A stretch of 64,000 bases of DNA from Raillietiella orientalis (taxonomy: Eukaryota). Location: contig JAYWIR010000009.1 in the NCBI GenBank assembly GCA_036172245.1, positions 5,022,001 to 5,086,000 on the forward strand, read 5' to 3'. Shown here in pieces: positions 16,762-52,612 of the stretch (position 1 is the first letter of the stretch; every line of letters starts with the position of its first letter). The position numbers and the translations under genes were made by a program. The notes below the pieces were generated by a model, which saw only the letters and a list, made by a program, of their open reading frames with translations, made no database searches and was not told the DNA's origin.

Positions 16762-16769
16762 TCTACTAA

Positions 16770-17113: not shown

Positions 17114-17149
17114 GATAAAAGTGAAAACAGGTAGTTACAATGTAACCTT

Positions 17150-18600
17150 AAATTCGTATTTCCATCCCGTTAACACTCGTAACACTTTCCCAGAGATATT
17201 ACTCAACATAAAATTAAAAATTTAATTCCACTAGGATTCTGAGATATCCACATCCAACCTCAATCATAAAATCGTCCGTAAAAAACTCATTCATCTCAAA
17301 TAACACACAACAAAATACACCATAAAATATTTACTTTCTATAACATTATAAACAATACTCTTCTGAACAACATTAACCACTCCCACATACCACACACACC
17401 CTCACTCCATCCACCCCTTATCAATTATCTCCCTAATTATGCTGACACGCATTAACCAATTTCTTAATATAAGCCCTCTCATCAACTTCAAACCCATAAT
17501 TACCATCATGACATTTCCTCAACTCTTCACCATAAACTTTACTATACTATAGTGACTCCCCAAAAAGGAGACAACATAATTCTGACATAAATTACTCTTA
17601 AAACTAAATTAACCATTCCTACATTTCCCATAATCCGCAAATCCCGCCCCCATCATACCCATGAATAACCAATCCTGCACACAAAAACATCAACGACTTA
17701 AACACGGCATGAATCAATAAATGATAATACACTAACATCCCCATACCTAACCCGAACCCTATAAACATTATACCCAACTGCCTCAGCGTTGAGTATGCAA
17801 TAGTCTTTTTCACATCAACCTCCATCCTCCCCATTACTCATGAACACACCATCGTCAAAAGACCACCATATAACTTACCATCCCAATTTCATTAAATCGA
17901 ATCATTAAATACACCCCGCAGTCACCAATCTTGACAAATGAACCAAAGCTGAAACTCGCGTAGGTGCTCCCATAGCCTCTGGTAGCCACACAATAAATGG
18001 TAGCTGTGCACTCTTAGTCATTCTCATTAACATTATTACCCAGAAATATCAACTATTAACACATAATCTCTCATAAACCCAAGTACCTCCCATCAACAAC
18101 CATCCATCAGCAAAATCCTATCCCTGAAACGATTACTCATAAACGTAATTATACCCCCATAATCAGAACCACGGATCATATAAAAAATCACCAAACAATA
18201 AGAAATAATGCCCAATCCATCTCAACTCAAAATAATCGCGACTAAACTAACACTCATAATTAACAATAACATTCTCACCACAAACCAAAATACTATAACA
18301 AAATACAATAACATCAAAAAACAGTTTTCTTGCTATGTACTCCCAACTATACATCATAACCAAAAAGAAACAACCATTACATACCCTATAAATAATAAAC
18401 ACTTATCATCGAAAACAAACGATACACTCCACTTCATTCCTCCCAACCTCATCAATGATCATTCCATCAACACTACCCCACTCCAACAAACAATTCACAA
18501 GCCCACACTCACAACTATCATCCTAACCAACCCCACTAATGACATATGTAATGACATGACAATGACCCCACTATTGACATGACATATGTAAAAAACACAA
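17150..18600 (-). pseudogene. nad5: NUMT: NADH dehydrogenase subunit 5 (with deletions and frameshifts)
   Basis: EVDVKKTIAYSTLSQLG...[37 protein letters not shown]. Confidence 0.9.
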
Positions 18601-18639
18601 AATCATAATCAACCCCCCTAATCCACCATACCCCAATTT

Positions 18640-19550
18640 CATCCCACCTCTCAGATACATTGATCGTCTCCCTAACAACTCAAACATTTAGCCCCTAAAA
18701 AAAAATAAGCCGGAAGATACATAACCATGTGCCACCATTGTCAAAACACATCCCATCACCCCCATCTCACTCCCCATCAATCTCCCCCCTACAATAACCC
18801 TTATATGACAAATCGATGAATGAGCTATAATTACCTGTCGAAAACACATCATTAACCACCTACCATAATTAAGCCAATTAAACATAACCTTATAACCCCA
18901 TAACTATATTTTATAAATAACCGCACCATCCCATACCTCCCTAACTTCAACATAACCCCAACAAGAATTATAGAACCAGAAGAAACAGATTCCACATGAG
19001 CCTTTGGAAGCCACAAATGAACACCTTAAACTGGTAACTTTACAAAAAACACCCCTACCAATATTAAACCTTCCATTCCCAACCCCTCATCTCTTCCAAT
19101 TGCTCATCTCCTATTCTAATGATCAAACTATCTCCCACAAAATCAATAAGACCAATTAAAAACCACAAAGACCTAAAAACCGTATAAATAAATATGTAAA
19201 CCCAAGCTCTAAATCACTCCCTCTGGTACCCTCACCATACTACAATCAACACCATAGGAACCATCCTACTCTCAAAAAACACATTAAATATAAAAAAATC
19301 GACTCTTATAAATCCATACATTACCATTACACCCAAAACCACTCTTACTACTCCTAACATAACCACCCCACTAACTCCCATTCTGTCCATTACCACTTAC
19401 ACTCATCTCCACCAAAAAAAAATAATCCAAACTACCCAACATCATCATCTCCAACCTCAATAATCCTCTTAAAATATGCCCCTTATTCATACAAAATATT
19501 CATAAACCTAATCAAAACACAAATCATCCCCATCTCTATTACTATTCCAG
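18640..19550 (-). pseudogene. nad4: NUMT: NADH dehydrogenase subunit 4 (partial)
   Basis: [28 protein letters not shown]...MVAHGYVSSGLFF. Confidence 0.9.
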
Positions 19551-19604
19551 GATATGCCTACATACAAATCTCCAGATCTCACTACCATCCACATAAACCC
19601 CTTG

Positions 19605-20025
19605 CATAATCATAATTACAACCATATCTCTCCTCTATTGCTCATACACCAATCCGATAATTATAGCTTTCTTCCTAGCTACAATTTCACTGACCACTGC
19701 CATTATCATTAACCTCCTTTCCATAACATCATGATATGCTATCATTCTATTTCTCATCTACATCAGAGGAATTCCAATCATCAATCTAACATACAATGAA
19801 TTATCTACATTCAGTACAAAACCCTTAATTATTACCCCATTCCTACTTCTTATTCCCGCCCCAAACTAACCTACTTCCCCATCCTCATCTTACTCATCAA
19901 GAATTCTACTGTCATTACCATACATCTCAATAACCTGATTCCTAATGTCCTACTGAATATTAACACTAATCATTATCCCACAAATAATCATACAAAAAAA
20001 GACACCCCTCCGCTCTCTCCTTTAA
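19605..20025 (+). pseudogene. nad6: NUMT: NADH dehydrogenase subunit 6
   Basis: TSWYAIILFLIYISGI motif; lies upstream of cob. Confidence 0.7.
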
Positions 20026-21115
20026 TAACAAAACTAAACAAAAAAATTAACAATATCGTTAACATACCCATACCATCAAACATCTCCTACTCTTGGAATC
20101 TAGGCTTCGTAATAGGAATCTTCCTAATCACCTAACTAATAACTGGCATTATCATCTTCATACATTACACCCCCCATACTACAGAAGCCTTTTCATCAAT
20201 CATCAATATAATACACAATACCAATGACGGATGACTTATACGATACATTCACGCCATTGTGTCGTCCTGTTATATTGCCTCCCTATTTTTCATAGCAATC
20301 TATCTGCACACCTTCCGTGCATTAAACTTCTTCTCTTATAAAAACATTACAACCTGAATAACAGGATTACTTCTCCTTGTCTTACTAATAATGACATCAT
20401 TCCTAGGGTACGTCCTTCCTTGAGGACAAATATCTTTTTGAGCCGCCACAGTCATCACTAACCTGTTTTCCACTGTTCCCTTCATTGGTCAACACATCAT
20501 CTCCTTTTTATGAGGAAATTTTTTCATCTCCAACCCTACCCTTAATCGATTTTTTCCCCTACACTTCATCTTACCCTTTGTTATAGTAATCATCTCCCCA
20601 TCACAGCTATTTTTTCTCCATAAAAACTTCTCTTCGAACCCTCCAGGAACTAAAAGAAACCTTGACATGCTCCCCTTCCGAACATTCTTCATCATTAAAG
20701 ACCTAACAAGCCTTCTACCACTCGCCACACTCCTCCTCCTTACATCCACCTTTCTCCCTTACATATTCATATCTGAAGAAAAACTCATACTCTCCAACAC
20801 CCTGGTAACTCCTACACACATTCAACCTGAATGATACTTCCTATTCACCTACACTATTCTACGATCAATCCTTAGACAACAAGCTAGGAGGAGTAATTGC
20901 CCTAATCTCCAGTATTCTTATCCTAACCACCTTACCAATATACAAACTTCTGTCCCTTCCATCCTCTCACTACTACCCTACAAAAAAAATTCTCTACTCA
21001 TTGTTAATTTCATCATTTTCAATTCTTACATGATGAACCATCACTTCATCAATATTCCCTCTCACATAAGTTTCATCACTCATCTATTTTACATTCTTCA
21101 AATCTGCAATATAAC
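20025..21115 (+). pseudogene. cob: NUMT: cytochrome b
   Basis: [60 protein letters not shown]. Confidence 0.95.
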
Positions 21116-21129
21116 AAAATGCATGAACA

Positions 21130-21868
21130 CATATACATTAACCTATCATAACGGTAACGTGGCAATACCCTTCGCCATCACATAATTACATACATTACAT
21201 ACAAACTCTTCACTCCCACCACATAACCCCCCATACATTCATCTTGTAATCAATCTTCAATACACAATAAATCCATATTCAGATAAAAACCACAAAACAA
21301 ATATTCTACCACCATACTCCACATTATAACCAGACACCAACTCAGACTCCCCATCCCGAAAATCACACGGCAAACGATTCACTTCCACCAAACACACAAC
21401 AACTGACATAACTAACCTACCCAAGCCACAAAACATTAACCGTCCCCCCATTTCCAATCCCAACTTATACCCTCCCATAAACACAACCACACTTATTAAC
21501 ACAACGATCATACATACTTCATAAGAATCATTTGAGCTACCAAATGCACCACACCAATATACCTATATTTATTGTTACTAACCCAACCACTTATTAACAT
21601 CCCATACATCCTTCCAGTCAAATAACATACAAACAACATTGAACCCATTACCCCCCCCATCAACCCCCAACCTCTAGGATAAACCACCCATATCCCCACC
21701 ATCACTCCTATCCTAATTAATGGACCCATTTTATAACCTACCTTATTACAATCTTTCACTTCATAATACCCTTTACCCAACGATTTCAAACCATCAATAA
21801 CTGGCTGCAAAACTCCCACTCCCATTTTATTCGGCCCTTCACGCCATTGCACCCCTCCTAAAATCTTA
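21130..21868 (-). pseudogene. nad1: NUMT: NADH dehydrogenase subunit 1 (partial)
   Basis: QWREGPNKMG..LQPVIDGLK; EVNRLPCDF.DGESELVSGYNVEYGG. Confidence 0.92.
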
Positions 21869-23564
21869 CAGTCGAAAAATGGTCGAAAGCACGGGCTGTA
21901 ATGAAATACGAAGCGTTCCGAAAAGGAAAGTGCATTTCAACACAAGACAAGCCGATGACTGTGTTATCCGATGATCATCTCATCATGTGATACAGCAGCT
22001 GCAAACGTGGAGAAAGCAAAGCGAACGCGCCCCCCTCTATCGATGACTCCGCGTTGCGTCACGAGACATTCGGTGAGCATCTCTCCATCTGTCCATCGTG
22101 GTCCACTGGAGGCACGCAAGGAGAATCTTTGCTCAGTTTACTGAATGAAGACTATTTTGGGAAGGGAACTTCATTCGTGGAACTTCATTTTCTAGGAATG
22201 TAAATGTGGATAAAGACGTATTTCTATCCGAACGTCGCCAAAACCCATTTGTGAGTAAGCTCGGCTTCCCTTCGTTTTCTCATTTCCCCTTTAGAAAGGT
22301 CTTTGAAGGAAGAAAAAACTGCAAAAGGTGAATGCTGAAGAAACGGCATCCCCGAGCAGAGTGAGGGAGAGACGGGCTTGGGATTCACTAAGCGGTTGGT
22401 TGGTGAGCCGGATGGCGATGCCGCTTTCACAGTTCTGGATGTCATGTTTGGCAGCAACGGGTCAGCTGTCCCCGAATCCGTGTCATTGCCAAACATTTGG
22501 CTGTGGCTTCCGTTTTGCTGTCCAGGGGAGGGAATCAATGCCGTGGGGGAAACAAACTCATCGCCAGTGTAACATGCACAGGAGGTTCGAAGTGCCCTTC
22601 CTTCTGTCGGAAAGTTTCTTCCCACAGCAGCGTGCGGGCAATGTTCTCCTTGAAGACCGCACTTTCCACTATTTCTAATAGTTCCCAAGCACAGCAGACA
22701 CGATCAAAGCTTCCAAGAATATCGAAGCGTGAATTTTCGAAAAAAAAAAAAAAAAAAATACGACCTGGTCAAAGAAATAGGGAATGTTTATTTGATGCCC
22801 TTAGGTTACCCTGAATTTTCTGAAGCCCACTTGAGCCACTTCTACAAAGAAGCGATTTCTCCTTGTAGAAGAAATTCAAACGAGAATGGGTACGGTTTTC
22901 TCGAGCACATGAGAACGACATGGAAATGCTGATTCGTGCAAGAAGCGGTTGCTCGGTAGCGGAATCCCTGTAGATAATCGCTTTATCTTTGCCATTTGAA
23001 TCACAGATTGCTTCCTTTGATTTGTTAGGGGAGAACTTATCTACTCAACCTTTCCAGAAACTCTGAAGGAAGAAAAGAAAGGCTCTCAAATGCTTCAACT
23101 GCAGCAGAAGCTCTAACCTCAGTAAGTTTACCAAGTTGAAGTTGAACGTCCTGTTATATTTTACCGCATTGTGACTACTGAAACAAAATAAATTGCATTC
23201 ATAGTGATGCTAACCCGATTATGTTTCGGGTAATCATACAGCAAATGTTTTACTTTTTATTTGTGTACATAGCTGAGTTGTAAAGTTACACAGCTATACA
23301 GTAAATTATATGGTTAGTTCTGTCTGCTGGCAGAGGCTGTCCTTACACTCTGGAGAGGCAAAGCTGGTCTTCCTCGTTTGATGCCGCTCTGTCTCTCTCA
23401 GACTTCTCAGTGGTAATTCCGCACACTAAAGATGGGAGCTTGTCGGATTCTTCAGGTGGGGACTACGAAAAGGGGTGCAACACCGTGCTTTGTAGACTCA
23501 GTGCTGCAGGAGGAAATGGCATGCTCGACAAACTGGATCCTGAATGAAGCTTGCTCGCTCTCAA

Positions 23565-30239: not shown

Positions 30240-30925
30240 AACTTCGTCAAAAAAGGGGGACAATGTGCTGGTGGAGGAGGAGGCAGGAGATTGTGAATCT
30301 GGCTCTGGTCTTGGGCTTGAAGAGACAGTCCACGGGAGAATGTCTCCTTTTTTCCAGTCGGTTTTTTTGCTTAGGGAGGCGATGTTGTGGACGATCCATC
30401 TGTCGTTGGATAGTTTGGAGTAGTCGGGTTTTCATTTGACGAAGACTATTATGTGTGGTGGTTGGAAATATTTGATCGATCCTTGGTATTTTGAGTCGAA
30501 GATTATGCCATTTTTTAAGCTTTCTATAAAGCCGTACTGGACGTGCTCCTGGTTATCCTTGGTGAAGTCTACGACGATGATTCTTTCTCCATTGTAGATG
30601 TGTGCTGCATCGGCTTTTTTGCAGCTATGCATGTAAATGGCTGTCTTTTTTAAGAAATTTCGCCTTCGTTGTTTTCCCTGTGTTGCCAATGGTGTCGTAG
30701 TACCAGTGTATTTTCCTGTGGTTTGGTTGATGTCGGATGAGATCTAGAATGCGTAGTTGCCATTCTCTTAGCTGAAGGTTGGCGAGAGGATTGGGATGTG
30801 TTCTTGCTCTTGATAAGCGAAAGCATTCTTTAATAAAATTTATATTTTTGGCGTAGAAGTGGGTATGGTTTTTAAGTATGTAGAGTTCATCGGCTCCGTT
30901 TTCTATTAATTGTAGTATCTGAAAG
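30240..30925 (-). pseudogene. rep: CRESS Rep helicase half (EVE)
   Basis: LREWQ...RKIHWYYDTIGNTGKT (Walker A), IIVVD (Walker B), ESLKNGIIFDSKY, PPHIIVF, LSNDRW. Confidence 0.9.
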
Positions 30926-31249: not shown

Positions 31250-31530
31250 GTCTTGGGAGTCTTGGCAACGTATTGGAGTGGGTGTCGAGGTCGACGATGA
31301 TCCATCGGTCATAGCCGAGTTCGGACAAATGAGGCTCCCAGTTTGCGAGTACGATGACATGGGGAGTGACGTAGTACTTAATGGAACCTTGGAATTTTGG
31401 GTCAAAGGGTATTCCGTTTTCAAGGGACTCGATGAACCCGTGAACGAGTTATTTAGCGTCCCTCGTGAAGTCGATGATGGTAGGTTCGCCGTTGTACAAG
31501 TGAGCGGCATCTGCTTTTTTCAGCACTGCA
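31250..31530 (-). pseudogene. rep: CRESS Rep C-terminal fragment (EVE)
   Basis: KKADAAHLYNGEPTIIDFTRD..GFIESLENGIPFDPKFQGSIKYYVTPHVIVLANWEP..DRWII. Confidence 0.85.
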
Positions 31531-31876: not shown

Positions 31877-32696
31877 TCAAAAGGACTCACTCTGTATTGA
31901 ACTTCCAAATAGCTGCCCTGACTGTTGATTCACCATCATCGCGCTTAAGAAAGCGTCAATGGAAGCAAAGTCTGGGTGGAAGGAGACCACTGTACTTGAA
32001 CTAACGCTGATGATCGCGTTAACCGTCTTCTCCATAGATTGCCGAGCACTCACTAGCCATGAGGGCGTACCGTTCACGAGAGAACTCTGAGTCCCAGTTC
32101 GTATAACGTCCCGCAATTCTAGGACCTTTACAAACCTAGCAAAGTTTCGCAGGTCCTGGCTTTTCGGATGTCGGGCGTCTTCCTGATCCTTATCTGTCAA
32201 AGGATCTTCGGGTCGAGGAAAGACTGTGCTACGGCCTTGATTCATTGTCACCACGCCGTAGATGTTTATGATAGTAGCTACACACATGGGCATCGTGTAT
32301 TCGGTAAAGAAGGGGATGCGGCTTGGTACTCTTATACCAGTGTATTTCTGATACACCGTCTGCAGCCTGCAAATATAAAGCTCTCTGCATACAAGCAGAA
32401 ACTTTTCACGGCTTATTAGTTCGCTGTATATTGAGCCACCTTCGTACATAACACTGACAAGAGTGTCATAAACGATTGAAAAGAATGGTTGAGCATTCGA
32501 CCACAATGGGACAATCTCTTCTGAGATTCCAATCGGGTTCGGGCCAATCAATTGCTTGGCGGCCTTTTCAATATAATCACTCTCGTGCTTTAGGCACTGA
32601 ATATGAGGTCACTCTAGAGGTGGTGCGTAAGGCGTGGGTCCTGATGCTTCTGCGTCTGGCTCCTCGCTTGTTCGCTGCTATTGCAGTCTGTTCCAT
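31877..32696 (-). pseudogene. Partiti-like dsRNA virus capsid protein EVE
   Basis: 224-aa open frame (CRELYICRLQTVY..YTGIRVPSRI...MPMCVATIINIYG) that resembles arthropod partiti-like capsids as I recall them. Upstream ATG at 32696. Confidence 0.5.
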
Positions 32697-32832: not shown

Positions 32833-33660
32833 CTAGGGAGCATTCGCTCCTAAGTTTCTGGTCTTAAATTCTTTGGAATATAGAGGAACGCAGGATGCGC
32901 TCCTTTTATTCTCCAGATCAGCCAACAAATGGAACGCAGCCTTAACCTCATCTTCGGAGAAATCCTCCCCCATTCTCTTCCGTTGGAGGTCATCCGTCTT
33001 TTTTCCTAAGTGTCTCATGAAGACATTCTGATTTGAAAGGCACAATTGTTGACCTTGGAAGTGTCCCGTGTAAATGCCTTTGAAAGGCATCCACGATGTC
33101 TTCTTCCGTTGTTTGTCGACGATAGCCGCCATATTGGATGCAGAAGATATCCGTTGCTAGATTCTTCTTTTCCAGTACACCGACTTCCCCTTGAACATTT
33201 CGGAAGACGTACCGACTCTCGTACTGTTCGTAGTACCTTGAGAGTGAGTGATCTTGGGTGTTTAGCTCTCGGTACGCCTCCTGCCTCAACCTCTTATCCC
33301 CGAATTGCATATTGCAGAATGAATGGACCCTATACTTCACGATATGCCAGTCGGCAACTCAGCGGATAGTGACATCTCGAAGAATCGCCTCGATGACTTC
33401 CTGGTGGCATGGAAGCGTCTCGAACCAGGCGGGCATGCAGACCTGGTAGCCTTATTTCGCCGAGAATTCTCCGCTCGGAGGGAGAACCACACCAACGGGT
33501 GATCGGACAGGAAATTTCTCATGTCAGGAAATACTTGTATGAGGTTCTCGATTTCCGAACTGTGCAGGACATGGTCGATCAGCTTGCGGCTAGCTGTTCT
33601 CCACTGAAGTCCGAAATCATCGGACAGCTGCCGATACGCCGTCCTACCTCTAGGGTTCTG
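32833..33660 (-). pseudogene. Orthomyxovirus-like nucleoprotein fragment (EVE)
   Basis: Across frameshifts it reads VCMPAWF...EAYRELNTQDHSL...VQGEVGVLE, in the order of NP motifs (SCLPA / FRLLQNSQVYSL / EDLRVL). The match is weak. Confidence 0.35.
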
Positions 33661-33664
33661 GGAT

Positions 33665-34085
33665 TTGGCCCGTGATATATCGAGCGCCGATACGGTGATG
33701 TATCGAGATTAGCATGATATTAGCATAAGCCTCTCCAAGGAATGCCATGTTCTCGATTGATGGGCAATTTGCGGTCTGTGTCCAGTCAAGTAGTCTCTTA
33801 AAAGCTTGGTAAGCTACTTGGTAAGGTCCCCAATTTAGGAGTCTTTTGAAGGCCTGATACGCCACAGCATGGCGATGTGTACGTAGTGCAATCTCAATAA
33901 GTGCATCTTGTGACACAGTGATGGGCTTGGGAGGATCACCTATTGTTCCTAGACCAACTGATCTCATTATGGCAAGAAACCCAGCAAGTTCCAGGACACG
34001 CAGTGTACTGCAAAAGTGCCCCAGGGTGTGCGCAATGTCTATACCCTTTTCCTCGGGTACTGCAACTTGCGACGCATTTTGCGTC
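33665..34085 (-). pseudogene. Second qinvirus-like nucleoprotein EVE, chimeric between two strains
   Basis: IAHTLGHFCST..THRHAVAYQAFKRLL..CP..IGARYITG aligns with 3399-4570 (LAHQMEHYIST..THRHTVGFQAFRKL..CP..QAKYLTG). Confidence 0.7.
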
Positions 34086-34089
34086 TCAG

Positions 34090-34749
34090 CGTACGGTTGA
34101 TGGGGATTATGTAAATTGTTCGTTCATGTTTTCGTATGTGGAACATGTGGATAGTTTGGCGAATTTATCGAAATCTTTGAATTTGGAGCAATACGCGAGA
34201 TATGATCTTTATGTGAAGTCGAAGGGCTGCGCAACAAAGGTGGAGCCATTGTCTCTTGGTTTGACTATTGGAAACATGACTGAAGAGTTCGGAATGAAAG
34301 TGTCGTATAGGAATATGTTGTTGTATCAGCCTGCGGCGCAGGGAGAGCATTTTGGTTCAATGCGGGGTTATGCCTATGAACATATACTGAGTAGAATAGC
34401 GGGACTTGAGGAAACTTCAGGATGTTTGTGTCGTTATTTTATAGTGCGTGGTATAAGGTTGTATTCGAAAGGATACGTGTTGAAGAAAGTTAGTGTCGAT
34501 GGTGTAATATTGGATCGATGTGCAAAATGTCCGTGGGTGGATTGTGGGGAGGCTGGTGGACTAGATCCGCCTCGGATAGGTTTTGGTCGTATGCATGTTG
34601 TAAAGCATATTCCGGGTGATCTGAAAAATGGTTGTTCGAGTGGTGTGTTACCAAAGCAAGGGACAATGATGAAAGGTTATCCTATATTTAGAGTAACGAG
34701 AAAGTTTTATGTGGTATTTAAACATCTGAGAGATGTCTGGTTGTACTAA
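34090..34749 (+). pseudogene. cap: CRESS capsid C-terminal ~220 aa (EVE, frame open)
   Basis: PWVD...FRVTRKFYVVFKHL end, followed by AATAAA, converging on the Rep stop at 34830. Confidence 0.65.
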
Positions 34750-34829
34750 TGAAAATAAATATGATATAAAAAATGCTTTTATCGATTGACTTTATCATAT
34801 GAGGTGGAGGGTGGTGATAGGGTGGATAT

Positions 34830-35385
34830 TCAAGAGGAAGAAGGCGAGTCAGGGGCTTCTGTTCTAGAGCTTGAAGAAGAAGGCCATGGGAGAATGGTTC
34901 CTTCTTTAGAAAGTTGCCAACTTGTCTTCTTGCTAAGTGTGGACGAACCAATGTTGTGTACAATCCATCTGTCTGTTGAAAGTTTGTAGAAATCTGGTTC
35001 CCAATTAGCGAAAACGATTATATGTGGAGGCTGAAAATATTTTAAGCTTCCTTGATACTTGGAATCGAATATGATTCCGTTTTTTAAACTTTCTATGAAG
35101 CCGTATTGTACGTGTTCCATGTTTGTCGTAAAATCAACTGCGATGATGCGCTCTCCATTATATAGGTGTGCGGCATCTGCTTTCTTGCAGGAATGCATAT
35201 AGATTGCTTTTTTTTTCAGGAATGGAAGAGGAATTTTGCCATTGTAGTTTTGCCAGTGTATCGTAGTACCAATGGATTTTTCGGTTGCTGGGTTTGTGGC
35301 GGATGATATCCAAGATGTCCATTTGCCATTGTTTGAGTCGAGGTCCTGCGATTGGGTTGGGGTGTTGACGCGTGCGTGACAAGTG
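34830..35385 (-). pseudogene. rep: CRESS Rep helicase half (EVE)
   Basis: LKQWQ..RKIHWYYD..IIAVD..ESLKNGIIFDSKYQGSLKYFQPPHIIVFANWEPDFYKLSTDRW. Confidence 0.9.
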
Positions 35386-35797
35386 GAAGTCTTTTTAATA
35401 TCCTCAGAATTAAGTTCTATGAAATTTGGCTGAACCCCAGAATTTCTAAATGCTTCAGTAAAGTTTCGATTCTTGTGACAGTAAGATTGTCCTAAAATAT
35501 TAGCAATTATATTCCAATAAGCTCCTAACTATATGACTTTATTCGAGTGAATTGGGTCATCCGGGTAAAATCTAGATAATGTTTTAGCCAACCCTGCTCC
35601 TCTCCCTTTAACAGAGGTAACTTCATTAGAAACTAAATAAATATCTATAACTGGTCTATCTAATTCTAATAATGGTGTAGATGTTCCTACATGAGATCAT
35701 GAACCAGTAGTCTTGCTAATCCCTTTAAATGACCAGTAGTTTGAGGGATATTTAGTCCTTCTATTTGCATTTTCTAGAAAGATTACTCATTTTAACT

Positions 35798-38048: not shown

Positions 38049-39539
38049 TTATATTCTTCCCACGAGCTCGCGTGCTTGCTCTGACAACTGACCACACGGA
38101 ATCATTTCTTTCAGGCTTCCGTAACTAATTGGCCGCACTTCACCTGAAAACCTGAAACAGTTTCCAGCTTCCAGGTCTTTGGCAACACTCGCGGATAACG
38201 TGGACTCCTTCTGGAGTGCACTGCCCCCGTTTCCCTGGTTGTGAACAACCGTGGGCGCATTGTCAACAAAGACCTCGCCTTTAAACTCTCTCACCGCAGC
38301 ATTCGCTGCCTTAGCTATCCGATAATAATCTTTAGGAGGGGGGGCCTGTGATGCTATCAATCGCAGCTGCATAAACGTCTGCGTATAAGCATTACGCAAA
38401 ATCTCTGCAGGTCTTCCAGGTCCTCCAACAATCCGATAACTGCCACAAGAACCGGACCCATCATAGCAGATTTCAGCGGGAAGCACCCAAGCTGCGACAG
38501 GCGGCTTAATAGACACTGGAGCAGCTTCCAGGGCCACTTCAGTAGCATACTTAACACGACTACGCAACTCTTCAGCAACCAGATTTCCCCTTCTCGATTC
38601 ATATGCGTCCTTATCAGGTGCATACCAACCCCGACTGCTCAGATTAGAAGACAAACGACTATAACTCTCTTCAACCTCTTGGTCCAAGATCTTGTCAAAT
38701 TCATCCTACTCCCGACGTTGCTTCTGCACCTTCTTTCGAAGATCCTCCTTTCCATGGAGACCTGCCAAAACAAAATTTTCCTTCTTTACCTGGCGCAATT
38801 TAAGTCCTTTGACACGAAAAGAACGAGGGAGCTGGACGAGTTCCATCACATCTTCCATGTGATAATCGGTCTCGACCAGCTCATGAAGTTCTAAGGGTTT
38901 CATCTCTGAATCCTCAAACCAAACTTCGTTTTCCACCGATGCCTGAACCAAAGTGGCGGAAACTCCGTAATTTTTCTCGGCTGACATAGAAGCTAAGTGC
39001 ATCCCAACTATCAACCTGTCTCGGAGGTAATAAACCGCTCCGGAAAACCCAGGTTGGGTTGAACCGCAGTAACCAAGATAGCCAAGGTCATTCTACCCAA
39101 CTATCTTAGCTGAAGAAGCCATGCCACGAACACTAATCATGGCATGAGTCGAATCTCCTGTGACTTTCTCTGACTTAACAGGAAAATCATTAATTTGACC
39201 AGGCATAGCGAAAATAGCAACATCATCTGCAATAATCCTAATGTCCGTAGGTGTAAACCCCTTCCCGGACTCGGTCGCTCTGGTTGCCAATTTGCCTGCA
39301 AATTGGGAACCAGGAATCATTATAACATGTCTTGGAGCGACTAACCACTTCCCAAGCCAAAAACCACAACCAAGGAACCTATTACCAGAATAAAAATAAA
39401 ACTGGCAACTAGGATCCCGTGGAGATCGGACAAAAGCAGAGCCTGGAATAGCACACTCAGGAATAACTAACTGAGCATCCTCAAACCCTGCCACCTCAAT
39501 TTTGTCTCTCTGTTCACGAAATTCTCTAAAATCTCGCAA
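38049..39539 (-). pseudogene. Sobemo-like (Solemoviridae/Sobelivirales) polyprotein EVE: serine protease, VPg and downstream region
   Basis: One frame of ~497 codons broken only by TAGs at 39093 and 38706. Protease motifs: LGCGF..APRHV, DDVAI, GSTQPGFSGAVY, IVGMH. Confidence 0.75.
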
Positions 39540-40100: not shown

Positions 40101-40245
40101 CTACTTGACAAGGCTTCTTCGATTCTCCCTTGGATCAGTGGTCCAAGGGAGAATTGACCCATCTTCATCCATGGTCCACTGTGTTTTCTTACGAAATCGT
40201 GGGTTGTCGAGGTCTATAATAACCCAGCGATCTTGTGAGGACAAT
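40101..40245 (-). pseudogene. rep: CRESS Rep extreme C-terminus (EVE)
   Basis: SQDRWVIID..KKTQWTMDEDGSILPW matches STDRWIVH..KKTSWQLSKEGTILPW at 34830-35198. Confidence 0.7.
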
Positions 40246-40674
40246 GGCTGGCTAAGAGCAGCTTGATCTCTTAAAAGATCTGCCTGTGCTGCAGCATGCC
40301 TGTGTGTGCCTGAAGTGAAGAGTGCGTACACTCTGTTGATCATGAAGATTAGCGCAGCATCCTTCCAGGCCTTAGTGTGGTAAATCCACCCTACTGCTGA
40401 TGCTGTTACATTCTTAATCGTGATCCTTGCGTCAGTTGGCTAATACAGCGATAATTTCCTGTCTTCTGAAAGTGCAATATCGGTTCCGGTCGTAAGTCCG
40501 ACTTTTCTATTGCCATCCAGATTTGGCAACATGCAGAAAATCTGTCATAGCTGGTTTCTGCCTCTTGTTCAGCCTGGTCTGCCATAACACTGCTAACTTT
40601 ATACAGCCAATATACTTAGCTTTCAAACTAGGTGTTGTATTTTTCACAATGCGTGTTAACTGTAGGTTTAAGGG

Positions 40675-43789: not shown

Positions 43790-45439
43790 TTTAGGACAGG
43801 TCATCACCATACTCATGACAGCAAAGACGTTAATTCTCAGTGGATTCGAAAAATAAAAGGCAAGTTGGTTGGCGTCGGAGAAAAGCATTCTGCCAAAATA
43901 GCAATCAAATGGTAATACTCTCTCATATAATATGTTACAAATTCGCATTGTAAGCCTGGCCTTCAGCACACATCGAATGGTCCCACTTGCTGGCATCACC
44001 AGTCAAAATCAAACCTTTATCTTTGCGACAGCAGGCGTCATATAAAATCTCTCCCACGTCAAAAATCGGAGTACCCGCTGTACTATTTGGGAATAATTTT
44101 TGTTGAAAATGCGTATCAACAAAAGTGCCAAGAACCATCCAATCAACGATCAACTGAAATAAGATATCAAAGTGGATCTGGGATATTTCTCTTCATCCGG
44201 ATCATTGGTTATTCTACCTTTTGCGCTGTCACATAGTACTCTTCCACACTTTGTCAATAACCTCTGAAACATACTTTGGGGTGTCAGGATCAGCAATGCA
44301 AGTCTCCATGTCTGGCCATTTATCAAACAGCCCTGAAACCCCTTTCATATTTATTTTTGTGAGAACCTCATCCCAACTATAAGGTCTCAGTGTCTTCCGA
44401 AATTGCATTTTTTTTAGATAAGGTAACAACTTTCTCAATTCTTAAAGTGTTCCTCTCCTAATACTTACACAAGGCTCATCAACTCTTGTGAAGATAGCCT
44501 CTAAAAGACTTTCATTCGATTTCCCAGTCCTTTTAACTACCGAATTAGTGTAATTTCAATCATACATTCCTCTAATGTACTCCTGCAAACGTTAATTTCT
44601 AAGATCTCGATCGCCCCAGTATGCATCTTCCGATGGAAGAAAAATAAAAATTTCTGATACATAAAGGCGACAGTTTTTTTACAACTAATATTCCTAATGT
44701 TATATCTTTCAATAATCTTTTTAACTCTATCTAGTGTTTCAAATTCATATTGATTCCTAATGATTCACCATAATTCGCTTGATTAGTGAATTCATCAACG
44801 CTTGATCAATAATTTGCGTCATTTGTAATCTATGTATCATAACATACTGCAAGGTTTTTTTGACCTTTCGCCGATTGTGCAGGAAATTGCTTTTACTCAT
44901 TTCTGTGTAGTGGAAGTCATCGTGATAACCAACTATAAATTTATAATCTCCATTGGTACACGCGGAAGGTACAACACAGATCACATCTTTACATTTCAAA
45001 TTAACTTCCCTTTCTTTACAGACGTAGACATTAAGACACGCTTGACTCTTACTATAATTGTCATGTACCACAATGTCTACCTGCTCATTTGGGTGTCCCA
45101 CAATAACCCGGTAACTGCGTAAAGAGTACCACGACAAACTCCAACTAAAGGAGTAAATATTCTCTTGATCTCATGTCAAAGTCGCATAACTCCATTATCG
45201 TTTTCACCAGCTTTATCGTAGTCATAAACGCACATGCCTCCAACAAAACTACCTAATAATTTAATGATGTTGGGAATACTTGGTACTGCATTAAATACAT
45301 CGTCTCGATTACGCCAATATAACCCACAAGCATCCACCAAAATGCTAGAGGAGGCCAACCAAACTGGCATACCTGCTGAAACAAAAAAATCCTCCTCGAT
45401 ACATGCCGCATCATATGTATCTTCATATACCATTTGTAA
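43790..45439 (-). pseudogene. Flavi-like (pesti-like/large-genome flavivirus) polyprotein EVE including RdRp motifs
   Basis: AIFTRVDEP, PYSWDEVLTKINMKGVSGLFD, GTPIFDVG and LTGDASKWDHSM (motif A). Disrupted by stops and frameshifts and cut at 45440 by a LINE. Confidence 0.6.
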
Positions 45440-48400
45440 TTTCCACCCGGGTAATCCCGGGGCGTTTATTAAAAAAACATTCCACAAACGTGGTACCAGG
45501 CCCCACTAACGGCCACACAACACCGGACCTGCCGGGACGCCGGGACGCAGCCCGACGTGGCTCTCCTCGGCAGTGGAAGGGATGGGGGAGAAAACAAAAA
45601 GAAAAATAAAAAGTAAGGAAAAGAAAAAGAAGTTGGAGGGCTGGGAAGGAAACACTCCGCACTGGGAGGAGGGGCCATCCTTCGAAGGAAGCCCTTTAAG
45701 TCCATGCGAATTGTACCCAGCCAGAACGTGGGCCATCCAGAAGCTCTCGACAGGAAGCGAACAGCATACGGGATGACGTCCCTCTCTTTGTGGTCCACAT
45801 CTTCGTCGCGTGTATCACTCCACGCCCCCACGATGCCACGGATGCAGCATAATGCTGCCACGGCTGCAGCTGGCTGAAGGGCGTCCCGCACGAAGAGGAG
45901 GCGGAAAACGTCTCTGGGCGCGCTGCCCGTAGGGAGCCCTAGGGTCGTCCCCAACCGTTCCCACAGGGGTCGGAGGGCAGCACAGTCAACAAGAAGGTGG
46001 GGGAGCGATTCCCTCTCCCCACACCGGGCACACTCAGGATTTACTCTCCCCCGGGTCCAGTGGAAGCAGCGCGCGTTGCAGGGCAGGCCCCAATGTAATG
46101 TCAGCAGCGCCGAATCTTGCCACTTGAGGGGGAGAATCCTGGCTTCAATTAAAACCGGGGGCCACTTCAGGTCATCCTGCTGGATGCCGAGTAGCTCACC
46201 CCATCTTGCAAGTCCTCGCGGGACGGCACTCGGGGTCGTGGCATCCGCCAGTTCTCCTTTGGTCCAACCGTTTAACAATTTCTCTCGTCCTGAGATCCGG
46301 CAGGAGACTTGCCACTTCGGCGTGCGGCCGCTGGTAAGAGCCCTATACAGAAAGGGCAGCGTCGTAGCTAAAGGGGTGGTCTCCGCCCACGTGCTTCTGG
46401 CGGGACACAGCAAAGTGGACCGCAGAGTGCAGCAGGCGTTACTGCCGAATCGCAAGCGGTTCCAGTTTTCCTCTCTGGTATTGTTCAACTTTGTTCCAAC
46501 AGTTCCACGTTCCAACGGTTTTCTCCAACCAGGCGGAGGAGTTGGCGGGGCTGCATACTATCCAACCGTTCTCTCTAACCTTCCGGCCGCGGCACAGAAG
46601 ATAGGACGCGAGCCCTTGCGTCCCGGAAACACGGCTGGCAAGGAGGCGGGCCGGAACGCACCAAGGGGTGTTCCACAACTTCGCTGCGATGGCCAAAGTG
46701 CGCCATTGCAGCTGGATCTCCAAGCGCTTCAGCGTCAGGAGGCCGAGACCGCCGTCCCGACGAGGAGCGCTTATGTCTTTCAAGTTCACTCGGGGCCTTC
46801 CGCTGCCCCAAAGGGCAATACGGAGGAGGTCCTTGGTCCGTTTTTTCGACAGGGTAGGGACCGGGCAAACAAAAAGTAGGGGGCGTAGGATGGGGGCCGC
46901 GAATGCGTTCCAAACCGCTACCCGTTCCGGCAGAAGGAATTTGCCTTCCAGGAACGGGCCGATCGCCAGCTCTACCCTTTGGAGACGACCTGACCAGGCT
47001 TCTGCTAAGCAGAAGTCCCCCGACGGGACACCCAGGTACTTCAGGCATCTGGCCGTGGGGATCCCCAAGCGGATCCAGTCAGGTCGTCCGACCCACGTCG
47101 CAACAACCGCTACCATCGACGACTTCGCCTTGTTAACACGCAGTCCAGTCCCGCGGCTTAGCAGATCGAAGAAATCCCCGACTGCGGCTGCCGGGGTGGA
47201 CATGGGCAACATCAGCTGAAGATCGTCGGCGTATGCTGCAACAGCGGGCGTGCCGGGGCACGAGCTAGGCAAGGCAGCCAAAGTCACCTTGTACGCTCTC
47301 AGCACCAACTCAAAGTAGGTGCTAAAGAGCAGGGGACTAAGGCTATCGCCCTGCCGTATGCCCCGCCGCACCGGCACGCCGTACGCTGTGATTCCACTGT
47401 AATGAATATTAATCAGCGCGCAGGTAGGAGAGAAGGGAGGGTGGGAAGCCCATGCGACCCAGGAGCTCAAGCAGGAGATCCTGGTCTAAGCAGTCAACCG
47501 CCTTATGGGAATCGACCACGATCGCTAGGGCCTCCTTCCCCGCCTGGGTGTCCATTCCCAGCCCAGCTGGCGCCTCCAAGGTGGGGTTGTTAATCATTCG
47601 CAAATTCAGGTTTCAATACCGTTGCACATGAAACCATGTGCTCGCGAAGAAGAGGTTGGCATCCATACTTCGCCCGGGAACAGCGTATGTCTGCTCCGGG
47701 CTAATTATGGAATTTGCCACCTGCCCCAAACGCGAAGCCCACAGCCCGGCAACCAACTTGGCGTCCGTGTTCACAATCGTGATCGGACGCCAATTGTTCA
47801 GTGTTCTCAGGTCTCCTCCCTTAAGGAGGAGCCTCATTCTGGCTGACCGAAACGAGGCGGGAACTTCGCCTTGGTCTCGGACCAGCCTTGTCAACTCGAG
47901 CACCAGGGGTGCCAACTCTGCCGCGAAGCATTGAAACAACTCCGCAGGCAGGCCGTCCTCCCCTGGTGCTTTCCGCCTCTTGAGCCTTTTGATACTGGCG
48001 AGAATTTCGCCGGTGGTAAAAGGCTCGTCGAGGTTTTCCTTCTCCTCCTCCCCTATTGCCGGGGCACCGTCCGGAAGCAAGCGCCGAGAGGCATCTTGGT
48101 CCGAGGGCGCCCTGGCGTAAAGGGAGGAATAATAACGCCGCACGAGGTGCCGTATTCTAGCCGGAGCCGAGTGCTCCCGGCCCTGGTCGTCCAGCAAGCT
48201 GGCCGATCCGGATTGCCAGGCTTGACGTTCGGCCCCGGCTCGGTACTCTGCCAGGCGACGGACATTGGGGGTCCTCTCGTACCGGCGAGCCTGTAAATAG
48301 GCCCTATGGTTCCGAGCCCCCTCCCCAAATCCGGGGGGCAGGCGGTGCATGGGGAACTCCTCGCAGAACTCGCCGACCGAGGCCTTGAAGAGGTCCCAAT

Positions 48401-50160
48401 CTTTGAGAGTGCGGAGGGTGACGCCTCTCAGGAATTCGCGAAGGTGTTCCTTCGCACCTGAGATGCGCGTCCAGTCCCCAGGCAACCGCCACGCCCTGGA
48501 CGGGGTCCCTTGTCGCGCGGGCACACCTCGAATATCAATCTGGAATGGTCAGATAGTTCCGACGCAACTTTCCCCCGTTTGCCGACCCGCGAGCACAGGT
48601 CGACATCCAGGAAGACGTGGTCGATGCTGCTGACCATTTCCGGGAGTTCCCTTAACAAGTTGCGCGTGCGCATGGCAGCGCATAACTCGTTAGCCGTCCG
48701 TTCCTGTGTGCGTGGCTCACCTGATAGCAGGCGGAGATTGAAGTCTCCCGCTATCAGGTGAGTCACGCGCACGTTCGCTTCCACCAGCCAGTCGCGCTTC
48801 AGGGTTTCCAGGAACGCCTTACGTTCCTGGTACCTGGTAGGATCGCTCGGAGCGTACACATTTGTTACGACGAGGTCGATCGTGTCGGACCACCTGAGAA
48901 TCAGCTGGCCGACACGACCGGCTTCGTCGAAGCGCACGCCCTTCACGGCTGCGGCGACTGCCGGCTTCATAAAAAACGCGACGCCACAGGTGTATCGGGT
49001 GCCGCATTGCCACATCAACCGTCCCCCTGCGATCCTTTCGATCTCCTGGGCGTTCTCCCCGGTGATCACGTGGATCTCCTGCAGGAGTGCCAGGTCGAAG
49101 TCACGCAGGGTGGCTGCCGTTTCCCGTCTGTTGCTGTCGTCGCGCAGCCCGTGGACGTTCCAACATGCCACACGCAATCGACGGCGACAGGCGAGCCCAG
49201 GTGTTATTCCCGGGAAAGTGGCAATGGGGCTCCCGCCACCTGGTCGGGCGGGACGGATGGAGGAACGGGATCACCGCGCACCAGTTCTCCCTCCTCCATG
49301 GGGGCCGATTCCTCGGCGGACCGCAACGGTTGAAGGGGGCGGGTTTCACGCACCTGCTCCCCCTCTTCCATGGGGGCCGATTCGTCGGCTGCGTTGGACG
49401 GCAGGGGGGAGCGGTTCTCAGCTGTCTGCTCCCCCTCTTCCATGACCATCTTCTCCGCAGGCTCCACCGGTCGAAGGGGGAGGCAATGCCCTACCTGCTC
49501 CCCTCCTCCATGGGGGTGGCCGGCTGCTCGGTGGCGGAGGGTGGGAAAATTCCTCCCTCCGTTCCCACGCTGCCGGCTTCCCCCTCGGCTGCCGGTGCGT
49601 CCCCCTCGCTCTTCGTCGGGATGCGCCTCTTGGGATTCTTGGACTTCCGTCCAGTCTTCTTCGGAGGCGCCTCCGTGGAAGAGGACGCACTTCCGGCATC
49701 CGGGTCGTGGTCACCTGTCGGAGGTGCCCTGGTCGCGGCCGGCCTTCGCAAGGCCTTTCGCGCGCCGTTCTCACGGTCGGCGAGTTCGGCCGCGAGCTCT
49801 TCCGCCGCCTGCTGGAAGGCGGCCTCGTCGATCGCGGCGAGCGCGTCGCGCGGTTTCCCCTCTGTTTGCACAGAGGGTTCGCCTTCCGTGATCGCGTTAT
49901 CTTCGGCGTCGACGCGGGGGATATCTCCCCCGGTGGCGGTCTCGGGTACCTCCACACGCTCCAAAGCGACCGAACATTCGCGGATCAACGCGCGGCGTTG
50001 TCTAATATTTAAAGGAGACGTCGCGGGTTCCGCCGTCGACCCTTCGGTTTTCTTAATTTTCTTGGATTTAGGCTTCGCCTTCTGCCAGCCTTCGCTCTGT
50101 TCAGCGTCGTCGGTAGATTGCACGACCGGCGTTTGCTGCACGGGCTCGGGCTCCGGCTGT
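45440..50160 (-). mobile_element. L1/Tx1 LINE A: ORF1 3' part, frameshifted full ORF2, 3' UTR
   Basis: ORFs 49491-50141, 48428-49177 (APE), 47613-48524, 46439-47470 (YADD) and 45469-46515 (CCHC); terminal hairpin at 45444-45470. Confidence 0.95.
49280..49520 (-). repeat. Four degenerate ~70-bp coding repeats (PMEEGE) at the end of LINE A ORF1
   Basis: CTCCCCCTCTTCCATGGGGGC-like unit recurs near 49285, 49358, 49429 and 49498. Confidence 0.75.
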
Positions 50161-50164
50161 GGGT

Positions 50165-52612
50165 GACGCGCGCCTCTCCTGCGGACTTGCGACGGCGCGC
50201 GTCACCATGGACGACCGGAGGCTCATGCCTTCGCAGATCCTCCTCGGTGACGTCGTCGTCTATCTCCGGTTTGCCGGGCAAACCCCCGCTTGCGGTAACT
50301 GCGGGAAGGAGGGCCACCGTCCGCGGAAGTGCCCAACACGCAGTTGCCGATACTGTAAGCTGCTCGGCCACTCGATTAACGAGTGCGCCGAGCTAAAACG
50401 AAAGAGGAGGGCGAGAAACCTCCCCGCAACATCGCCGTCCGCGCCGACTCCATCCGCCCCGTCGTCGGGGAAGAAATCAGGCGCGAACGAGGATTCTCAG
50501 CGGAGAAGTGAAAAGTCCGCTTGCGCGGGCGATTCTCGGAGCAATGCTCCCAAAAAACCCGCGCGAAAGGACAAGAAGCTTCTCCAGGCTGCTTCAGTGA
50601 AGCCCCGAGCGACCCAGCCCGCCGATAACATCGGGCAGGCTGCAAAACCACCGCCGCTTCCGTCCACTCTCGCTCCGGAGCGAAATAGCGGTGGCACGCC
50701 CGGGAAGACCACCGGAGCGTCGAAAAAGGGGTCGCGCGCACCTTTGCCAGGGACAGGCAAGCCGGCCACGGCGGGCCGAACGCCAGCAAAGGCTGAAAAG
50801 CCTCGCGCGACACCCGAGAATCCCGCCACTGTGCCCGCACCTCCCGGTAAGGAGGTGCAGAAGGCAGACGTGGCGAAGGAGACACTGGCCTCCATCGCCG
50901 TATCCGAGGCCTTGGAAAGGATGCGAAGGACCCTGGAAGCCCTCGCGCCCAACCGGGGCAAACAGGAAGGCGGCGAGAATGGCTGGACCTTCGTCGGGGG
51001 AAAGAAGGAGCGCAAACCGCGCGATCCTTCCCACTTCCCGATCAAAAAGGTAGGCGGGGTGAAGAGGCAACCCCGCGCGCCCAGAAAGGCGCCAGGAAAA
51101 GCCTCTGCTGCCGCCGCGCGCGCCGCCGCAAACACCCGCGGCGAGAGGGGAGCTGCCGAAGCCGTGACCCCGAAAGGGGGATCGGCGACGAAGGCACCCT
51201 CTAAGAATGCTGGACCAGCTCCGGGCTGCCAGCAAACAAAGAGGCAGGCGAAACACCCGCCGCCGCGTGCGCGCAATTCGGACTGCGAGGTGGAGTCCGA
51301 GGGCAGCGCTAAGGCTCGCCAAGCCCCGGTCAAGGCCAGGGCTGCGCGCAAGCCAAAACTTGCCAGGCAAGAGCCTGATGCCGGGAACGGTTCCCGATGC
51401 TCCTCGGAGCCCGAGGCAATGGTCCTCGACTCCACCGAGCCGGCCGCGAGCGGCGCGGCGGGGACAGGAAGCGCTTGCGCTACCTCATCCGCCGTGCTCC
51501 CGGCTGATGCCTCGCCGGACGGGGCGAGGAACGCACCTCCATGTCCGTAGCAGCAATGCGCGGTCTCGCTTCTTCCTGTCGCGTCCGAGTGGCCTGTTGG
51601 AACGTCAACGGGCTGCAGGACAGCGAGAAGAGGCGATTGGTTGCCAACGTCTTGCGCGACTTCGATCTGGCCCTGCTGCAGGAGATTCACGCACTCTCCG
51701 AGCAGCAATCGGCCGATCTGCAAGTTCGCGCAGGCGGGACGCTCCATTGGAGGTCAGGCTCCCAGAATACCTGCGGAGTCGCATTCCTTGTCCGGGGCAG
51801 GGTGGCGGGAGCGGTGCGGAGCGTTTGTTTCGACGAGGAAGGTCGTGTGGGCCAACTTGTTCTCAAGTGGTCCGAATAGATCAACCTTGTCGTCACGAAC
51901 GTGTACGCGCCGAGCGACTCCGCACGTCACACCGAGAAACTGGAGTTTTTCGAGAGACTGCGCGACCGCTGGCTCAGCAACTCCGGCCCCGACGTGGCTC
52001 ACCTCGTAGCCGGGGACTTCAACGTCCACGCGCTATCGGAGGAGTCTCACCGTCGCCAGGAGAAACGGCTGGTGAACGAGGTGTGCGCGTCGCTGCACAC
52101 CTCGAATTTGCTGGCCGACGATCCCGGAATGCGTGCTTTGCCGGACCATGTGTTCCTCGACGATCACCTTCATTGTCGGGTGGGTCGAGAGGTCCCGTGC
52201 CGTCCGAGCTTTCCGACCACTACAGGCTGGAGTTTGAGCTACTCCTGTCTGGCAAGGGCCCTCCGACGCACGTCTGGAGGTTGCCGGCCGACTGGTTGAG
52301 AAATCCGGTGGCTGCGGAGCACTTCCGCCAGCATCTCCGGACCTTTGCCGTTCGAGAGCTCGTGGACTGGGACGATCTGAAAAGATCGGTCCGCGAGTTC
52401 TGCAGCCGGTTCCCCTTGCGCCTGCTTCCCCGTGACTTCGGGGAAGGCGTGGCCAACAGCAGAGAGTTTCTGCAGGCCCGCCAATTCTTTCGATGCCCGG
52501 ACGTCCGGTACCTTGCGGAGTACAAGGCCAAGGCCGAGCGCCAGGTCTGGCAGTCAGGAGCAGCTTGTCTGCTCGACGACCAGGGCCTGGAGTGCTCGGG
52601 CGCGGCCGAAGC
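50165..52612 (+). mobile_element. L1/Tx1 LINE B: ORF1 (two zinc knuckles) and start of ORF2, interrupted at 52612
   Basis: CGNCGKEGHRPRKC..CRYCKLLGHSINEC in ORF 50159-51550; APE domain from ~51557. Confidence 0.92.

Follow-up and report, generated by a model that had tools for sequence, protein, structure and literature searches.

Several described systems come close to the locus reported here, which lies in a 64,000-nucleotide stretch of contig JAYWIR010000009.1 of Raillietiella orientalis (assembly GCA_036172245.1, positions 5,022,001 to 5,086,000 of the forward strand). We refer to this stretch as the window and give all coordinates on its numbering. To judge from its sequence, the element of interest is a dead, non-retroviral endogenous viral element (EVE) from a qinvirus-like nucleoprotein or 'putative capsid' gene. 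It contains a seam: two successive parts of the gene, piece A and piece B, meet within one open reading frame (ORF) and overlap by a 12-codon motif that is present twice, in two versions. The papers compared below are cited for those of their sections that concern such sequences, and what we say of them is limited to these sections.

The closest class consists of qinvirus-like EVEs and the small-segment protein of qinviruses, which belong to the same protein family as pieces A and B. Qinviruses have two segments, and an RNA segment of ~1.7 kb encodes the small-segment protein (PMC6955108). A survey of ant genomes, in the sections used here, reports qinvirus elements derived from the polymerase only (PMC6540820). 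Unlike its qinvirus-like relatives, the seam element is very probably a mosaic of two sources, a composition found in 0 of 49 relatives, and its identity to all sampled sequences is low.

A second class are chimeras and duplications that arise when a polymerase changes its template. Intertypic recombinants of enteroviruses (Lowry et al. 2014, PMC4055744; Bentley et al. 2021, PMC8409635) resemble the seam in having two distinguishable parents and in keeping both homologous stretches, and their duplications cluster at protein boundaries, independent of local sequence identity. These recombinants, however, are replicating positive-strand laboratory viruses made by a viral polymerase, whereas the seam is a chromosomal fossil of a negative-strand gene fragment. 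Duplications made by the reverse transcriptase (RT) of HIV-1 (PMC12115494, PMC13288777) likewise arise when a jump lands out of register and a short stretch is copied a second time, so that a coding or regulatory motif stands in tandem. There, a single genome supplies both copies, which start out identical, whereas the copies described here are 69% identical and belong to two lineages. In insect cells, chimeras of viral DNA (vDNA) and circular viral DNA (cvDNA) join short non-contiguous viral pieces to each other and to mobile elements, with junctions that recur (Poirier et al. 2018, PMC5857290). They match a micro-mosaic near 40.3 kb of the window as well as the sizes of the pieces found here (~45-230 bases). 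Unlike the seam, they join distant parts of one virus; the sections cited describe no case in which two different viruses meet at almost the same position of a gene.

A third class are the clusters of viral fragments in mosquitoes and shrimp (Palatini 2017, PMC5497376; Whitfield 2017, bioRxiv 10.1101/127498; Taengchaiyaphum 2022, PMC9357335). Like the window, they hold many fragments from few virus families and more than one viral type, with a strand bias and among transposons, and they are presumed to feed the PIWI-interacting RNA (piRNA) pathway. In these clusters, unlike at the seam, the viral types occupy separate fragments or separate clusters, and the cited sections report no in-frame overlap seam. 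Qinvirus-derived fossils, scrambled clusters of several viral types and copy-choice chimeras are therefore already known. An in-frame overlap seam of two diverged viruses within one element was not found in the searches made of open-access text, although one may still have been published.

Two diverged copies of one motif

The ORF that contains piece A, a filler and piece B comprises 157 codons and has no internal stop or frameshift (Table 1). From 33865 to 33782, the minus strand reads VAYQAFKRLLNW-GPYQ-VAYQAFKRLLDW. The peptide and the codons quoted in the earlier note are exact, as is its count of codon pairs: 9 of the 12 differ only synonymously. Two pairs are identical (AGA, TGG), and the remaining pair, AAT/GAC, is changed at positions 1 and 3 and gives the sole amino-acid change (N/D). 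At the level of bases the copies differ at 11 of 36 positions (69% identity), and 10 of these 11 differences fall on third codon positions. The differences comprise 8 transitions and 3 transversions; RNA editing was considered as their cause and rejected on account of these mixed kinds of change.

If the 11 differences were placed at random, 10 or more would fall on third positions with P = 2.7e-6. In a simulation of neutral decay with 11 random substitutions (200,000 runs from each copy as the start), none of the 400,000 runs retained the peptide with at most one amino-acid change, which bears out the assertion that the neutral decay of a tandem duplication would not produce this pattern. The Nei-Gojobori method counts 10 synonymous differences over 7.67 sites and one non-synonymous difference over 28.33 sites (pS 1.30, pN 0.035). 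Among the 10 synonymously variable codons 9 differ, compared with 6.75 expected for unrelated codon choice (P of at least 9 = 0.10). Divergence at third positions implies that the copies diverged under constraint on the protein, and hence that their divergence preceded the joining; with nine of ten variable codons changed, the synonymous sites are saturated and the sources were long separated. We consider it very likely that two separately evolved viral sequences are joined at the seam. The join keeps the orientation and, as had been claimed, the reading frame. It does not fall on the homologous codon: an overlap of 12 codons and a filler of four codons place it at an offset of 16 codons.

The pair of copies is conspicuous as peptide and inconspicuous as DNA. 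We scanned all six frames of the entire window for peptide repeats in near tandem (8 or more identical residues out of 10, offsets of 4-199 residues) and obtained 10 rows, in which the seam alone has a low base identity (0.60); the other nine are ordinary tandem repeats with base identities of 0.77-0.93. The motif pair was not reported by a base-level repeat tool, which fits the longest in-register run common to both copies of 5 bases.

The filler carries a second repeat on a finer scale. The string CTTACCAAG stands twice, 12 bases apart, as a 9-base exact repeat; over 1.1 kb no other exact direct repeat of this length has an offset of 9-20, and 200 shuffles contain 0.075 on average. A repetition of adjacent sequence in the linker had been noted before; it is real, and one base longer than reported. 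The filler matches the first 12 bases of copy 2, that is, the start of piece B, at 10 of 12 positions, compared with 6 of 12 for copy 1. The order at the seam is therefore piece A through its W codon, ~4 bases without an assigned source, a stutter copy of the start of B, and piece B itself. When the two 48-base units are compared codon by codon, 23 of 24 first and second codon positions are identical in codons 1-12, and 1 of 8 in codons 13-16; the filler is thus not homologous to the four codons that follow copy 2. Such a collapse of identity after codon 12 is a sharp boundary of homology and marks a junction rather than a clean duplication of 48 bases. The filler may be read as a signature of polymerase slippage, leaving a stutter copy; DNA end joining leaves the same scar.

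A phmmer search with the ORF among 1.84 billion representative proteins gave 7 matches at E <= 0.001, of which 4 are members of the family described here (best E 1.8e-06); of the other three, two are TPR proteins and one is repetitive. The four family members (318-397 residues) align to residues ~20-154 of the query over a stretch that is ~15 residues shorter; the closest protein among all representatives is 39% identical. A second search with the best full-length match, an ant genomic protein, returned 47 proteins. Named members are the 'Putative capsid' of Linepithema humile qinvirus-like virus 1 and a protein of Wuhan insect virus 15, and the family also includes genomic copies in the ants Formica, Temnothorax, Wasmannia and Lasius and in the whitefly Bemisia. 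Many members lie on contigs of 1.1-1.8 kb, which, together with the named members, fits a two-segment qinvirus genome with a segment of ~1.7 kb encoding the family protein. A profile of 368 positions was built from 49 of the 53 stored family proteins. The remaining four were removed beforehand: P0002, its cluster-mate P0008 and P0003 are TPR repeat proteins, and P0005 is a repetitive protein of 515 residues.

The profile recovers both pieces (hmmsearch: 36.6 bits with an independent E-value, i-E, of 6.4e-13 for piece A; 22.8 bits with an i-E of 1e-08 for piece B), and with the named qinvirus-like members this upholds the assignment to the qinvirus N family that had been made from the sequence. 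Throughout the window, profile matches occur on the minus strand only. Pieces A and B are successive parts of the gene that overlap in the profile at 222-232 by the repeated motif; the alignment of A stops at 232, and its next residues, NW, parallel the DW of copy 2. In a tblastn comparison 44 of 51 queries match 33668-34054. An alignment of 51 sequences shows 16 extra residues that are unique to the ORF, being present in 0 of 49 relatives and absent from the one other full-length copy in the window (EVE3, see below). Of the 368 profile positions the ORF covers 160-273 only, and it runs from stop to stop. No convincing similarity to the family was found upstream or downstream of it in any frame, including a relaxed three-frame search downstream. 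A continuation of piece B seen by eye ('GRRIGS...') was dropped, as the profile search gave it no support. Pfam recognises no family in the ORF nor in nine neighbouring ORFs.

An AlphaFold2 model of the relative P0001 (pLDDT 90.1, pTM 0.85) was used for structural comparison. In the structure alignment the top 31 rows are all nucleoproteins of Mononegavirales (212-264 residues) with Z of 6.5-3.2, values that, being below 8, are middling for helical proteins; Foldseek gave a best E of 0.07. The name 'nucleoprotein' is thus reasonable but unproven. In the model, the duplicated 12 residues correspond to P0001 residues 225-236, nearly all of a predicted helix at 221-235, which directly follows the invariant T220 of a conserved PAGT loop and at which the partial structure matches of the second lobe start. 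On this model, the first helix of the C-terminal lobe would be the last part of piece A, and the same helix would open piece B.

As for the relation of the two sources, A and B agree at 11 of 12 motif residues, including the F of QAF, which occurs in 0 of 49 relatives. This shared F indicates that the sources are kin and belong to the same sub-lineage. The sequences point to two related viruses that have diverged beyond what the word 'strains' conveys; the earlier note was right in seeing two separately diverged sources, and its term is too weak for saturated synonymous sites. The separate phylogenies of A and B it had proposed were run and proved uninformative. Piece A is placed as sister to the window's other copy (support 0.48) and piece B as sister to P0038 (support 0.88), with branches of 1.4 and 2.2, and the identity to every sampled relative is 24-40% for A and 12-36% for B. 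The identities of A and B to the relatives are uncorrelated (Spearman 0.16, p = 0.27, n = 48), and the GC content of third codon positions (GC3) does not separate the pieces (0.39-0.41 for A vs 0.44-0.45 for B). When the 157-residue ORF was scanned against viral contigs and against metagenome contigs, no close relative emerged. Each scan gave one locus (L001 and L002), with 28 and 35 matched residues on contigs of 111 kb and 168 kb, and both were judged spurious.

The surrounding cluster

The window contains further fragments of the nucleoprotein gene (Table 1). EVE3, a near-full copy, has a frame change near 3940, one in-frame stop and a single copy of the motif. It is 25-32% identical to A, B and the fragment at 40.3 kb, which indicates a separate and more distant source. 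The latter fragment, F40, is a second mosaic: nucleoprotein positions 3 to ~77 are followed by THRHAAA-QA, a frame change, FKR and, ~10 codons later, a Rep-like C-terminus. The motif piece of F40 (40310-40267, minus strand) comprises ~15 residues at profile positions ~216-230 and represents a third version of the motif, which differs from A and B mostly synonymously and has an 11-base string in common with copy 2. The micro-mosaic at 40143-40541 combines, within ~400 bases, a fragment of an RNA virus and a probable fragment of a DNA virus. A possible scrap of nucleoprotein (SMPPGSHR) close to the seam is about as likely to be genuine as to be a coincidence, as the same criterion of 6/8 identity gave four chance loci elsewhere in the window.

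Altogether, the cluster holds at least three distinct synonymous versions of the motif (A, B and F40) and a fourth version in EVE3. Profile positions 216-234 (19 codons) contain the end of A, the start of B and both ends of the motif piece at 40.3 kb, which is suggestive. However, this block is among the three best-conserved 15-residue blocks of the profile; short pieces are preferentially recognised there, and the clustering of ends is therefore not counted as evidence.

A second family in the cluster consists of Rep-like sequences. The longest copy, a 232-codon ORF, is the upstream neighbour of piece A and probably derives from a Rep/helicase of circular Rep-encoding single-stranded (CRESS) DNA viruses, an assignment that we offer as a lead only. 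Its nearest clusters in a protein atlas (score 0.95) are 88-96% viral (Cressdnaviricota), with PF00910 on 14-15% of their members; Pfam, PDB sequences and a homologue search gave no match for the family. Five further partial copies are 78%, 56%, 41% and 32-34% identical to the longest, and this range suggests repeated captures from diverse sources.

The cluster is biased to one strand: the minus strand carries all four secure nucleoprotein regions, as well as the uncertain scrap, and 5 of the 6 Rep-like loci. Fragments of viruses and transposons are thus packed in one orientation, as in a piRNA cluster, and most ORFs of long interspersed nuclear elements (LINEs) likewise lie on the minus strand. 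The setting is chromosomal, with LINE endonuclease and RT ORFs and a ~6 kb copy of mitochondrial DNA in the same 64 kb.

Table 1. Position of the seam, of related fragments and of neighbouring features in the window (HMM, hidden Markov model; profile, the 368-position family profile).
Feature	Position	Strand	Remarks
ORF of the seam element	33650-34123	-	157 codons, stop to stop
Piece A	33836-34051	-	profile 160-232
Copy 1 of the 12-codon motif	33865-33830	-	3' end of piece A
Filler GPYQ	33829-33818	-	12 bases, between copy 1 and copy 2
Copy 2 of the 12-codon motif	33817-33782	-	5' end of piece B; profile 222 onward
Piece B	33665-33820	-	profile 222-273
Possible nucleoprotein scrap	33390-33413	-	SMPPGSHR (family SMPAGTHR), 6/8 identity; local HMM i-E 0.16
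EVE3, near-full nucleoprotein copy	3516-4549	-	3947-4549, profile 3-195, and 3516-3932, profile 200-338; i-E 4.1e-31 and 3.6e-50
F40, second mosaic	40267-40541	-	profile match 40278-40541, positions 3-87; i-E 2.4e-09
Rep-like C-terminal piece after F40	40143-40238	-	partial copy; match E 7e-06
Rep-like ORF	34830-35528	-	232 codons; longest copy
Rep-like partial copy	30297-30656
Rep-like partial copy	31260-31523
Rep-like partial copy	2283-2555
Rep-like partial copy	8373-8772
ORF without homologue	33922-34749	+	275 codons
ORF without Pfam family	31877-32608	-	243 codons
ORF without Pfam family	38049-38705	-	218 codons
Mitochondrial DNA copy	15900-21950		~6 kb
COX3	15928-16299	+	Pfam E 1.4e-26
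Cytochrome b	20514-20834	+	in mitochondrial DNA copy
ND1	21257-21936	-	in mitochondrial DNA copy
LINE copies	45000-64000 and 1-1000	mostly -	GC-rich (59-64%)
LINE ORF	60540-63596		1018 codons, open throughout

Three ORFs near the viral fragments have no assignment. The 275-codon ORF overlaps piece A in antisense and fills the gap up to the Rep-like ORF; no homologue was found among proteins of near length, and its best atlas score is low (0.81). It may be open by chance or represent a viral gene not recognised as such. The other two, of 243 and 218 codons, share the strand of the viral fragments and may be further viral fossils that have escaped recognition. Neither has a Pfam family or a credible match among PDB sequences, the sole row for the 218-codon ORF, a phage gp49 chain at E 0.051, not being credible.

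The mitochondrial DNA copy is inserted in the chromosome and explains the extreme G-poverty of the plus strand in this part of the window (GC skew -0.5 to -0.7). The LINE copies at the two ends of the window are nested or in tandem, with endonuclease and reverse-transcriptase domains; among them is one long ORF that is open throughout.

How the seam may have formed

Our tentative preference is for imprecise template switching during the reverse transcription of two viral RNAs. The reverse transcriptase of a host retrotransposon would have copied viral mRNA in a germ-line cell that held both viruses; it would have stuttered and then jumped from the B template to the A template, landing near the matching position but 16 codons off, as expected of imprecise copy-choice. 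The single mosaic complementary DNA (cDNA) would then have integrated into a locus that was gathering fragments of viruses and transposons in one orientation. Joining of random ends without a guide would give an offset within 16 residues in 8.8% of cases and, with strand and frame also required, in ~1.5% (0.015); with so small a chance of a near-colinear, same-strand, in-frame join, we favour a process in which homologous templates are roughly aligned at the outset. Described cases bear on the proposal: the chimeras of non-contiguous viral pieces and retrotransposons in insect-cell viral DNA are attributed to copy-choice in reverse transcription (PMC5857290), capture by copy-choice has been proposed for mosquito EVEs (bioRxiv 10.1101/127498, PMC5497376), and HIV-1 reverse transcriptase produces motif duplications via non-homologous strand transfer (PMC12115494, PMC13288777). 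The reverse transcriptases identified in the window are of the LINE type only.

Several points weigh against this reading. Every step of the mechanism is inferred and none is directly observed. No LTR (long terminal repeat) element was identified beside the seam, and the window's LINE-type enzymes contrast with the mosquito literature, which implicates LTR elements. With at most 5 shared bases in a row, pairing between the second template and the growing strand would be poor, and two deeply diverged viruses would have to be present in one germ-line cell simultaneously. The ages of A and B are indistinguishable; piece A has retained conserved family residues in 11 of 18 aligned columns, piece B in 9 of 13. 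An in-frame join at a lobe boundary would be better explained by selection on a replicating recombinant virus, and a 9-base templated copy is equally a hallmark of the end joining of DNA ends by polymerase theta (PMC7165422). Whatever its origin, the element is not a working gene; its candidate role, if it has any, would be to lie within a long transcript that serves as precursor of small RNAs directed at the two viruses.

The alternative that survives best, which we regard as possible though rather doubtful, places the join at the level of DNA. It supposes two events: an A-type element was resident, and a B-type cDNA, or a B-type element from another part of the cluster, was joined to it later, by insertion, by deletion of the intervening DNA or by end joining with a short templated insertion. 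The many separate captures in the cluster, seen in the at least three motif versions with a fourth in EVE3 and in the graded Rep-like copies (78% down to 32-34% identity), suit such a history, and the filler, with its four unassigned bases and the 9-base copy of the flank, resembles a templated insertion by polymerase theta (PMC7165422, PMC5466332). For mosquitoes, it has been proposed that such elements undergo rearrangement and ectopic recombination (PMC5497376), and shrimp have scrambled clusters with old and current virus types (PMC9357335). The estimate of ~1.5% for an unguided near-colinear, same-strand, in-frame seam tells against it, a random landing that comes within ~50 bases of the correct position, in a cluster exceeding 60 kb, would be rarer still, and the window contains one such seam only.

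The 'homology-guided updating' advanced in the earlier note, reminiscent of primed acquisition, is the special case of a DNA-level join in which the resident element directs the landing of the newcomer. In such an animal counterpart of primed spacer acquisition, the old A-type element would give rise to small RNAs that target the matching stretch of a relative's nucleoprotein mRNA; cleavage would leave RNA ends within the homologous region, and their reverse transcription, followed by joining at the source locus, would lengthen the element by the version of the new virus. Steering of this kind would explain both the ends that fall within 19 codons of one helix and the presence of at least three viral versions of the motif in the cluster. 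We nevertheless hold the whole reading to be very improbable. The sequence offers no support for a guide: the copies are 69% identical over 36 bases, and their longest shared run of 5 bases is too little for nucleotide-guided pairing. Positive support comes from one near-colinear seam alone.

A further alternative, unlikely in our estimate, is that the seam was made in a virus and endogenized whole, either as an imprecise recombinant of two co-infecting qinviruses, made by the viral polymerase, or as an old native duplication of the helix. The in-frame join, the lack of a stop in 157 codons that span exactly A and B, and the predicted position of the duplicated helix at a domain boundary, where an extra helix might be tolerated, would suit this origin. 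Intertypic poliovirus recombinants also carry duplicated parental sequence at their imprecise junctions, with 3 to ~250 extra bases, clustered at protein boundaries (PMC4055744); the same report describes the duplicated sequence as being lost on serial passage, so that a fossil of such an intermediate would be unlikely. The insertion is found neither in the 49 relatives nor in the other copy in the window, and the mosaic spans only profile positions 160-273 of 368. Recombination is, moreover, rare in encapsidated negative-strand RNA viruses, which tells against a viral recombinant. For a native duplication, the last four codons of the 48-base units would be expected to be related, and they are not (1 of 8 first and second positions); the 9-base stutter would need a separate event.

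An assembly artefact, in which alleles or paralogous elements were mis-stitched, is highly improbable. The region is rich in repeats, but assemblers need a near-identical overlap, and the overlap here consists of 36 bases at 69% identity with a longest match of 5 bases; in addition, the window is without N, and a blastn-short search of 33300-34830 within the window gave only the self-match at E < 1. Tandem duplication after integration with neutral decay, although common in repeat-rich DNA and represented by nine of the ten rows of the repeat scan, can be dismissed along with chance resemblance as having next to no probability, given the third-position bias (10/11, P = 2.7e-6), the failure of all 400,000 simulated decays to keep the peptide, the base identity of 60-69% at the seam vs 77-93% in ordinary repeats and, for chance, the 11/12 peptide match 16 residues apart.

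What the seam would record

A fossil of an RNA virus in a chromosome is usually taken as one snapshot of one virus. The seam very probably is a rare direct record of material from two viruses joined near a matching position, and it displays a mosaic of two relatives base by base. The record would be of template switching during a co-infection, of captures repeated at a single spot or of a negative-strand recombinant virus, and for the qinvirus group each of these is poorly documented. The locus also supplies a signature by which such seams can be searched for, namely a tandem overlap at the level of peptides with saturated synonymous sites, which is invisible to base-level repeat finders. If near-colinear seams show no excess genome-wide, the seam would be a curiosity of a scrambled cluster; if they are in excess, they would be the first sequence evidence that resident fragments bias new additions.

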